UHGV virus genome: UHGV-1468954
Source: a virus
DNA length: 30,750 nucleotides
Reading direction: 5' to 3' (one strand)
The translations under genes were made by a program, and so were the position numbers. Below the pieces are notes generated by a model. That model was not told the origin of the DNA. It ran no database searches and worked only from the letters and a program-made list of their open reading frames with translations. Within the stretch, counting starts at the first letter, position 1. The number at the start of each line of letters is the position of its first letter. Positions 617 to 1,018 of the stretch are shown one piece after another.

Positions 617-673
617 TTAATTTGCTCCAGATACAAGGAATCACCGCAGCATGGCTACGGCAATGCGTCATTG

Positions 674-688
674 AGACCACAGTGGTCT
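674..688. promoter_or_regulatory. Perfect 15-bp palindrome AGACCACAGTGGTCT; candidate Mnt operator
   Basis: Seen directly between the tailspike start (616) and the mnt start (752). The architecture (7-bp arms, 1-bp centre, CCAC core) resembles the P22 mnt operator as I remember it. Confidence 0.5.
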
Positions 689-751
689 TATTGTGGATAT
701 AACCAGTAGATCATATGATGCCGATCCACTTACAAAAGTGAGGCATCAAGA

Positions 752-1003
752 ATGGGAAGAGATGACCCGCAATTTAATCTGCGGCTACCTTACGAATTAA
801 AGGAAAAACTAAAACAGCGAGCCAAATCCAATGGCCGCTCTCTTAATTCAGAATTAGTTCAGATAGTGACTGATGCTGTATCAAAGCCATCCAAAATTTC
901 AGGCTATCGAGACGATGCGGAACGCATCGCTGATGAGCAGTCTGAACTTGTTAAGAAGATGGTGTTTGATACGCTGAAGGATTTGTACAAAAAACCCACC
1001 TGA
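752..1003 (+). CDS. mnt: Mnt repressor (Arc/Mnt ribbon-helix-helix family)
   Basis: 83 aa; MGRDDPQFNLRLPYELKEKLKQRAKSNGRSLNSELVQIVTDAVSKPS...DAERIADEQSELVKKMVFDTLKDLYKK is near-identical in the C-terminal half to P22 Mnt (from memory). The N-terminal beta-strand residues differ. Confidence 0.85.
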   Translation: MGRDDPQFNLRLPYELKEKLKQRAKSNGRSLNSELVQIVTDAVSKPSKISGYRDDAERIADEQSELVKKMVFDTLKDLYKKPT

Positions 1004-1013
1004 CGGTGGGTTT
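992..1013. terminator. Bidirectional hairpin terminator between convergent mnt and orf322
   Basis: AAACCCACC-tgac-GGTGGGTTT; on the minus strand it is followed by a T6 run, on the plus strand by TTT. The mnt stop codon lies in the loop. Confidence 0.6.
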
Positions 1014-1018
1014 CATAA

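Follow-up and report, generated by a model that had tools for sequence, protein, structure and literature searches.

An mnt-only immI locus beside the tailspike gene of a P22-like E. coli prophage, and the natural specificity classes of its repressor

The window analysed here, the 30,750-nt sequence of UHGV-1468954, comes from a P22-like (Lederbergvirus-type) prophage in reverse orientation, in which mnt lies directly divergent from the tailspike gene, with neither arc nor ant between gene 16 and gene 9. We consider it rather probable that this is a mnt-only immI region of the P22 family (an "ant moron") in a K1-type prophage of E. coli, in which mnt would form a self-contained, selected and autoregulated cassette and the tailspike would be expressed by late read-through. 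The mnt-only architecture is already known and is not a new kind of system; what the comparisons below add is incremental, namely selection on the lone mnt cassette, three natural specificity classes and the loss of Pant. The original prediction for this DNA was borne out in its description of an orphan Mnt with an operator of co-varied specificity, and lost its proposed mechanism, control of a promoter of the tailspike.

The tailspike-mnt junction and its repressor

The 5' part of the tailspike gene occupies positions 1-616 on the minus strand (ATG, complement of 614-616) and continues past the window start. Its product joins a gp9-type head-binding domain (Pfam Head_binding, E = 6e-67) to a K1 endosialidase N-terminal extension (End_N_terminal, 1e-32), and in a megablast search of sequenced phages the 5' end was 97% identical to the endosialidase tailspike of CUS-3. 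The intergenic region spans 617-751 and places mnt 135 bp from the tailspike ATG; this distance and the perfect palindrome at 674-688, both given in the original prediction, were correct on re-reading. Next to the tailspike gene is its leader (617-660, minus strand, with the RBS GGAG), which is common to P22 and CUS-3, is annotated there as the "boundary sequence" bsq1, and is conserved among orphan loci. The leader contains an imperfect hairpin at 643-659 (CCGCAGC-ATG-GCTACGG), also found in P22 as two copies bracketing about 110 bp past the ant terminator; divergent relatives have another, yet hairpin-like, sequence at this position, and the hairpin could act in the late transcript as an RNA element or mark a boundary of recombination. 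Positions 661-673 form a variable junction of low column identity, at which arc and ant are absent and the mosaic edge of the mnt module lies, and in relatives it has taken up indels of 11-12 bp, an insert of about 280 bp, an HNH gene and IS1. Beyond it, the palindrome AGACCACAGTGGTCT at 674-688 is separated by 57 nt from the tailspike ATG and by 63 nt from that of mnt (752-1003, plus strand), which encodes an 83-aa ribbon-helix-helix repressor with a C-terminal tetramerisation helix.

The end of mnt overlaps a hairpin (989-1013), CCCACC-TGAC-GGTGGG, positioned between A6 and TTT, which reads as an intrinsic terminator that would be strongest on leftward (minus-strand) transcripts out of the adjoining P63C-domain gene. 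Phages L and epsilon34 have annotated terminators at the corresponding position, and an automated terminator scan did not call the hairpin, probably because its stem extends into the flanking A and T runs. The P63C-domain gene (1019-1990, minus strand; Pfam P63C, 6.8e-14) is a neighbour of the ant moron, co-oriented with the tailspike gene and outside the Mnt cassette; to its right follow a small plus-strand ORF (2144-2533) and then the ejection-protein genes. The first 4.4 kb of the window are 99.5% identical to a locus of E. coli G749, where the prophage adjoins a tRNA-Arg gene and intS. Because the same P63C gene also adjoins complete mnt-arc-ant modules in the E. coli prophages of 611R6, TW05614 and 23CRST044, it does not replace ant.

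Between the start of the P63C gene and the divergent ORF, at 1986-2081, we observed several copies of a 12-nt motif (ATAATGCAAGCA / TGCTTGCATTAT). These comprise a perfect inverted pair (1986-1997 and 2014-2025), whose first member overlaps the start codon of the P63C gene, a direct copy (2069-2080) and a degenerate copy near 2047-2058, and they look like candidate operators for a regulator of the P63C gene and the small ORF.

That Mnt is an orphan, as originally predicted, was supported by tblastn: when the Ant and Arc proteins of P22, CUS-3 and 23CRST044 were compared with the whole 30.75 kb, the sole Arc-like match was mnt itself, so that there is no second Arc, and no match to a P22-type Ant was better than E = 0.002. 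That weak match falls inside the P63C gene (1253-1438, minus strand), where similarity to residues ~83-141 of the CUS-3 and 23CRST044 Ant proteins amounts to 30-34% identity over 44-62 aa (E = 0.002-0.008); the P63C protein and the antirepressors may have a domain in common. Homologs of arc or ant elsewhere in the prophage under the same operator, named in the original prediction as an outcome that would count against it, were not found in the window, where the operator is unique. Thus arc, ant, sar and a strong Pant over the operator, the features of a complete P22 immI, are all missing from the window. For sar this rests on an Rfam search at the gathering threshold with a library that may be without a sar family, in which the only match was Lambda_thermo, the cIII thermoregulator (28602-28660, plus strand, 84 bits), which implies that the early left operon has a cIII gene of the lambda type. 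A remnant of the Arc operator was also considered and rejected, as a single TAGA box is left and no dyad. Elsewhere in the window, two Rha-domain proteins are antirepressor-like by annotation and unrelated to P22 Ant: one with Rha and ANT/KilAC domains in the nin region (20410-21132, minus strand), the other with Rha and ORF11CD3 domains between the lysis and terminase genes (16417-17028, minus strand). No Mnt-type operator occurs near either.

The window Mnt matches both Pfam Arc (PF03869, 2.8e-22) and Repressor_Mnt (PF11423, 2.2e-18), and the N-terminal ribbon-helix-helix DNA-binding domain (PDB 1mnt, 2.8e-34 over residues 3-77) and the C-terminal tetramerisation helix (PDB 1qey, 3.1e-12, 29/31 residues identical in the alignment) are both present. 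It is 76% identical in amino acids to P22 Mnt, with the N-terminal changes Ala1Gly, His6Gln, Phe9Leu and Met11Leu, and its recognition strand reads RDDPQFNLR, with Gln at position 6. Residues 5-11 (767-784) contain PQFNLR, the strand of P22 Arc (PQFNLRW), next to an N-terminal arm, GRDD, that is Mnt-like. The gene is a mosaic with a joint near 925: compared with the His6-type mnt of E. coli TW05614, where arc and ant stand beside the same P63C gene as in the window, the 5' two-thirds are ~66% identical at the nucleotide level and the 3' third (the last 90 nt) is 99% identical. These last 90 nt, together with the downstream P63C gene, show 97-99% identity to E. coli prophages with a His6 Mnt, arc and ant. 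The mosaic structure therefore implies that operator, promoter region and DNA-binding domain were swapped as one unit, and with this tetramerisation helix in common, Mnt proteins that differ in specificity might be able to form mixed tetramers.

The putative operator and three classes of specificity

Three perfect palindromes of the 7-N-7 form occur in the window, so that such a palindrome is not rare by itself. The one at 674-688, AGACCAC-A-GTGGTCT (core 675-687), occurs only once in the window even when 2 mismatches are allowed, with 0.04 occurrences expected by chance, and no second copy was found in the window or in a 49-kb stretch of the G749 prophage around the near-identical locus. It lies where the mnt operator is annotated in P22, which in the orientation of the window reads AGGTCCAC-C-GTGGACCT, and 10 bp separate the operator centre from the first base of the -35 hexamer of Pmnt in both P22 and the window. 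By this position and spacing, which agree with the Mnt-operator-like character originally assigned to it, the palindrome is orthologous to Omnt of P22 and a putative binding site; position and the co-variation of its arms together identify it as a putative cognate dyad operator just upstream of the promoter of its own mnt gene. Homology to Omnt explains 674-688 better than an intrinsic terminator or RNA hairpin, a reading that we rejected since no terminator-like site exists in 580-780 and a 1-nt centre cannot form a full hairpin. A 10-bp palindrome, ATCATATGAT, lying over the -10 of Pmnt (711-720) was likewise rejected as a second operator, not being conserved in 720R6-type relatives.

Operator arms and recognition residues were compared in 80 loci retrieved by protein similarity alone, and a second protein-based scan, using a divergent orphan Mnt as the query, yielded another orphan lineage. 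The pairings form three classes: in the P22 class a His6/Asn8 Mnt is found with GGTCCAC-N-GTGGACC arms, in class II, that of the window, a Gln6/Asn8 Mnt with GACCAC-N-GTGGTC arms, and in class III a Gln/His8 Mnt with GTACCA-NNN-TGGTAC arms. Among the 80 loci, every Gln6 Mnt (MGRDDPQFNLR) was accompanied by a dyad of the GACCAC-N-GTGGTC type, of which about six variant sequences show one arm mismatch, and every arc-adjoining His6 Mnt by GGTCCAC-N-GTGGACC; exceptions to the classes are single-arm mismatches only. The class III Mnt begins MEELETQFHLR, with His for Asn8 and without Arg2. Its 14 loci (10 distinct operators) are all orphans, in which the tailspike is found 137-170 nt upstream, or about 408 nt in the case of two loci, and their dyad lies at the equivalent place with TATTG directly after it, as in class II; among sequenced phages, nothing closely matches the class III cassette.

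Orphan loci are not the only carriers of the class II pairing. Complete mnt-operator-arc-ant modules with a Gln6 Mnt and the AGACCAC dyad, placed between mnt and arc, were found in three contigs (L088, L141 and L152), and two more (L222 and L223) have the dyad with one arm mismatch. When 46 distinct intergenic sequences of orphans are compared, columns 675-680 and 682-693 show essentially no variation, the operator centre base at 681 varies freely (C in 14, G in 12, A in 12 and T in 8), and the 30 nt to the left of the operator are variable and contain indels. The pairing of residues and arms across the three natural classes indicates that recognition residues and operator arms co-vary, in agreement with the original suggestion that the N-terminal beta-strand differences from P22 Mnt go with an altered operator: Gln6 always with GACCAC, His6 with GGTCCAC, and the His8 class with GTACCA. 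Residue 6 of Mnt has been regarded as a "master residue" for operator preference. The co-variation fits the published statement that one changed Mnt residue shifts the preferred operator bases (PMC1184061).

Some operators deviate. A phage-L-type locus (L254) has a tandem duplication of the right-arm region of the operator about 115-80 nt upstream of mnt (AAGACCACGGTGGTCTT, about 30 nt, ACACGGTGGTCTTATTG), and in two further loci (L233 and L237) the left arm has decayed to GTATCAC-G-GTGGTCT; such changes give the impression that operators are at times eroded or rearranged. An operator-pattern scan of viral contigs returned mostly chance occurrences, 71 of 119 loci among the matches listed lying without a match to mnt, arc, ant, head-binding or P63C. 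Three loci found by the operator pattern itself (L114, L120 and L161) are ascertainment-biased for this purpose, and the protein-based scans were therefore used for operator conservation in their place. Scanning genome contigs with the Mnt protein gave no confirmed relative.

Promoters, conservation and the possible working of the cassette

We searched for promoters with a consensus scan that recovered, as positive controls, P22 Pant (TTGACA-17-TATATT, 11/12) and Pmnt (TTGAGA-17-TATCAT, 10/12) where they are annotated, as well as the Pant of the complete Gln6 module L141 (TTGACA-17-CATCAT). Under the strict consensus, no promoter-like site was called on either strand in 580-780 of the window; weak promoters can slip past consensus scans. 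By positional homology to the annotated P22 Pmnt, the Pmnt equivalent is TTGTGG (691-696)-17 nt-TATGAT (714-719) on the plus strand, with a predicted start near 726, and it falls below the strict threshold. The minus-strand equivalent of Pant (696-724), placed in the same way, reads TCGGCA (724-719)-17 nt-TATATC (701-696); it is decayed, with the final T of the -10 missing, and still matches the consensus at 8 of 12 positions.

The same picture extends to the relatives. At relaxed threshold, the rightward Pmnt equivalent is kept in 43/43 distinct class II orphan sequences, as TTG(A/T)GG-17-TA(A/T)GAT with invariant -10 columns, and takes the form TTGTTG-17-TATCAT in class III; its -35 matches consensus at 3-4 of 6 positions in orphans versus 5/6 in P22. 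Strict leftward promoter-like sites are missing from all 43 of these class II sequences and from all 14 class III loci, whereas by the same rule every complete dyad-bearing module has one. In 45 of the 46 orphan intergenic sequences, C stands in place of the final T of the Pant -10, and in the 720R6 type, which is the commonest and has an identical Mnt protein, the -10 equivalent is TGCATC. Spacing differs on the two sides of the operator: the distance to mnt is fixed (62 +/- 1 nt), and that to the tailspike varies between 57 nt and about 900 nt, an opposite-strand HNH gene, IS1 and an AT-rich 280-bp insert being tolerated. Fixed spacing on one side, free spacing on the other and the loss of Pant imply that the operator belongs functionally to mnt and not to the tailspike.

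The junction is widespread. Contiguous tailspike-to-mnt matches among sequenced phages (megablast) came from ST64T, ST160, SE1, phage L and SPN9CC of Salmonella and from vB_EcoP-720R6 and Gally of E. coli, in whose annotations mnt is directly divergent from the tailspike, and this orphan Mnt repressor junction is kept in 106 of the 5,426 complete E. coli genomes of the RefSeq set, or about 2%. The protein collection lists the exact window Mnt protein in 8,817 blocks, and in 10/10 distinct neighbourhoods among those listed it adjoins a Head_binding tailspike without Arc or Ant. Many contigs in the comparison are near-duplicates. The mnt ORF is intact in all loci examined, and dN/dS of orphan mnt is about 0.07-0.2 with synonymous sites near saturation (window versus L058: dS 0.51, dN 0.037, ratio 0.073); by these ratios, orphan mnt is under purifying selection. 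Part of the intergenic conservation is due to recent recombination and not to selection, as the intergenic regions of the window and phage L are almost identical, against only 70% identity in the remainder of mnt.

In the working that we favour, a tetrameric ribbon-helix-helix Mnt of the Gln6 class would bind 674-688, and the operator would now serve only the adjacent mnt promoter (691-719), in the geometry of P22. In P22, Mnt represses the divergent Pant and does not repress Pmnt, which it aids mainly by silencing the overlapping and much stronger Pant. Here Pant would have lost both hexamers after the loss of arc and ant, and since it has decayed, the tailspike would be transcribed mainly by antiterminated read-through of the late operon, passing the terminator at 989-1013 and running antisense through mnt, akin to P22 late transcription, which likewise crosses a terminator and mnt in antisense. 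Operator, Pmnt and mnt would thus constitute a selected and probably autoregulated unit expressed from the prophage, the sign of the autoregulation being one that we infer. With Pant dead, the P22 rationale for Omnt is gone, and autoregulation alone therefore does not fully explain the conservation of the operator; candidate explanations are direct activation of the now weaker Pmnt, residual weak leftward transcription, a roadblock function or some further constraint. The selected role of Mnt most likely lies in trans, where the repressor may silence the Pant of incoming or co-resident phages with the same operator class. Complete Gln6-type modules are rare (about 5 contigs, their nearest named relative being a phage of Erwinia), and a megablast search of complete E. 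coli genomes yielded none, which weighs against trans-immunity in E. coli. Published observations fit a Gln6 Mnt without action on the His6-type operator of P22. A broader generalisation can be put forward only tentatively: orphan Mnt cassettes would be, rather than debris, a widespread, selected and prophage-expressed regulator with at least three operator-specificity classes, detached from the antirepressor and acting as a trans-acting guard against Ant phages of the matching class, as a positively autoregulated switch, or in residual gating of the tailspike.

The original prediction had suggested that Mnt may control a tailspike-proximal descendant of Pant. In such a model this promoter would still fire leftward into the tailspike gene, and the tailspike would be silent in lysogens and expressed early or uncoupled without Mnt. 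The operator does lie exactly at the P22 Pant start, with a leader of only 57 nt to the tailspike, the window variant keeps its 8/12 hexamer matches, and the conservation of the operator calls for some explanation; in P22, moreover, Pant transcripts can reportedly reach gene 9, an observation ascribed to Berget et al. 1983. Mnt and Arc have also been proposed to influence tailspike levels (PMC2629481). We nevertheless judge this mechanism unlikely, since the scan found no promoter-like site in 580-780 with its positive controls working, the class II and class III orphans are equally devoid of strict leftward sites, the final T of the -10 is gone in essentially all of them, most loci with an identical Mnt have the TGCATC hexamer, and HNH, IS1 and 280-bp inserts separate operator and tailspike. 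Mnt bound at 674-688 could instead block or attenuate leftward RNA polymerase, whether from the late operon or reading through from P63C, and so tune tailspike dosage. The operator is the last element ahead of the tailspike on the leftward transcription path, and in P22 the frequency with which PLate transcription arrives at the tailspike is reported to depend on the ant moron, an effect to which Mnt and Arc may contribute (PMC2629481); but the terminator at 989-1013 already shields the tailspike from transcripts that are not antiterminated, and the tolerated insertions, together with an operator spacing fixed to mnt and not to the tailspike, make such a roadblock improbable.

Whether the lone mnt of phage L and ST64T-type phages is a remnant or otherwise functional was asked by Zaworski 2021 (PMC8022706). 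Under the former answer, mnt and operator of a degrading immI would persist only because they are linked to the head-binding end of the tailspike gene, which is essential, in keeping with the decay of Pant, the occasional single-arm operator mutations, the decayed left arm of L233 and L237 and the IS insertions. Set against this are the dN/dS of 0.07-0.2, the intact ORFs, the retention of Pmnt in all 43 class II sequences, and the perfect dyads of differing sequence that match differing recognition residues in separate orphan lineages, and we regard a non-functional remnant as very improbable. The comparative evidence of purifying selection, co-varying perfect operators and a kept Pmnt thus argues against the remnant answer, as it does against Mnt simply gating a tailspike promoter.

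Relation to known systems

The P22 immI region (mnt, Omnt/Oarc, Pmnt/Pant, arc, sar and ant) resembles the window in having mnt, in the distance from dyad to Pmnt, in the orientation of mnt against the late operon and in its site between gene 16 and the tailspike. It differs in that the window is without arc, sar, ant and the Arc operator dyad, has decayed Pant hexamers, and carries GACCAC instead of GGTCCAC arms and Gln6 instead of His6.

Closer are the ant morons of ST64T, ST104 and phage L, for which the mnt-only arrangement has been published (Villafane 2008, PMC2629481; Zaworski 2021, PMC8022706) and which share with the window the architecture, the junction sequence, the Gln6 Mnt and the operator. 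In contrast to these, the window has an E. coli host and a K1 endosialidase tailspike, and the 3' third of its mnt matches the P22 type, making the gene a mosaic; relative to phage L, the body of Mnt is only 70% identical and the P63C-domain gene stands in place of orf62. Phages vB_EcoP-720R6 and Gally, in whose GenBank records a "Mnt" is annotated by the tailspike, have a 100% identical Mnt, the orphan arrangement and the same operator core, and differ from the window in an 11-bp insertion to the left of the operator, another centre base, the Pant -10 TGCATC and different moron genes.

CUS-3, a P22-like K1 prophage and phage of E. coli K1, is nearly identical to the window in the 5' end of the tailspike and the leader, but its ant moron has ant and two mnt-like genes. 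For the second of these, of the His6 type, no CCAC-N-GTGG dyad was found anywhere in the 7.6-kb locus. In the same locus (L005, CP000711; 5400-5545, minus strand, and 5931-6179), the "boundary sequence" bsq2 appears to hold an unannotated Arc-like ORF, roughly MKVKTLRMPEKLEKILEEKAKEECRSF..., and GGTACGCAT motifs are repeated upstream of the first mnt-like gene.

As in the engineered Mnt residue-6 variants and Arc/Mnt hybrids of the Sauer and Stormo laboratories, a single residue of the recognition strand goes with altered base preferences; here, in contrast, the alleles are natural, their operators have changed symmetrically to match, and the classes are defined by sequence. With its Arc-type strand and Mnt-like arm, the window Mnt corresponds in nature to the engineered Arc/Mnt hybrids, and the orphan and complete loci together supply a natural three-class series of protein and operator for this classic ribbon-helix-helix model system.
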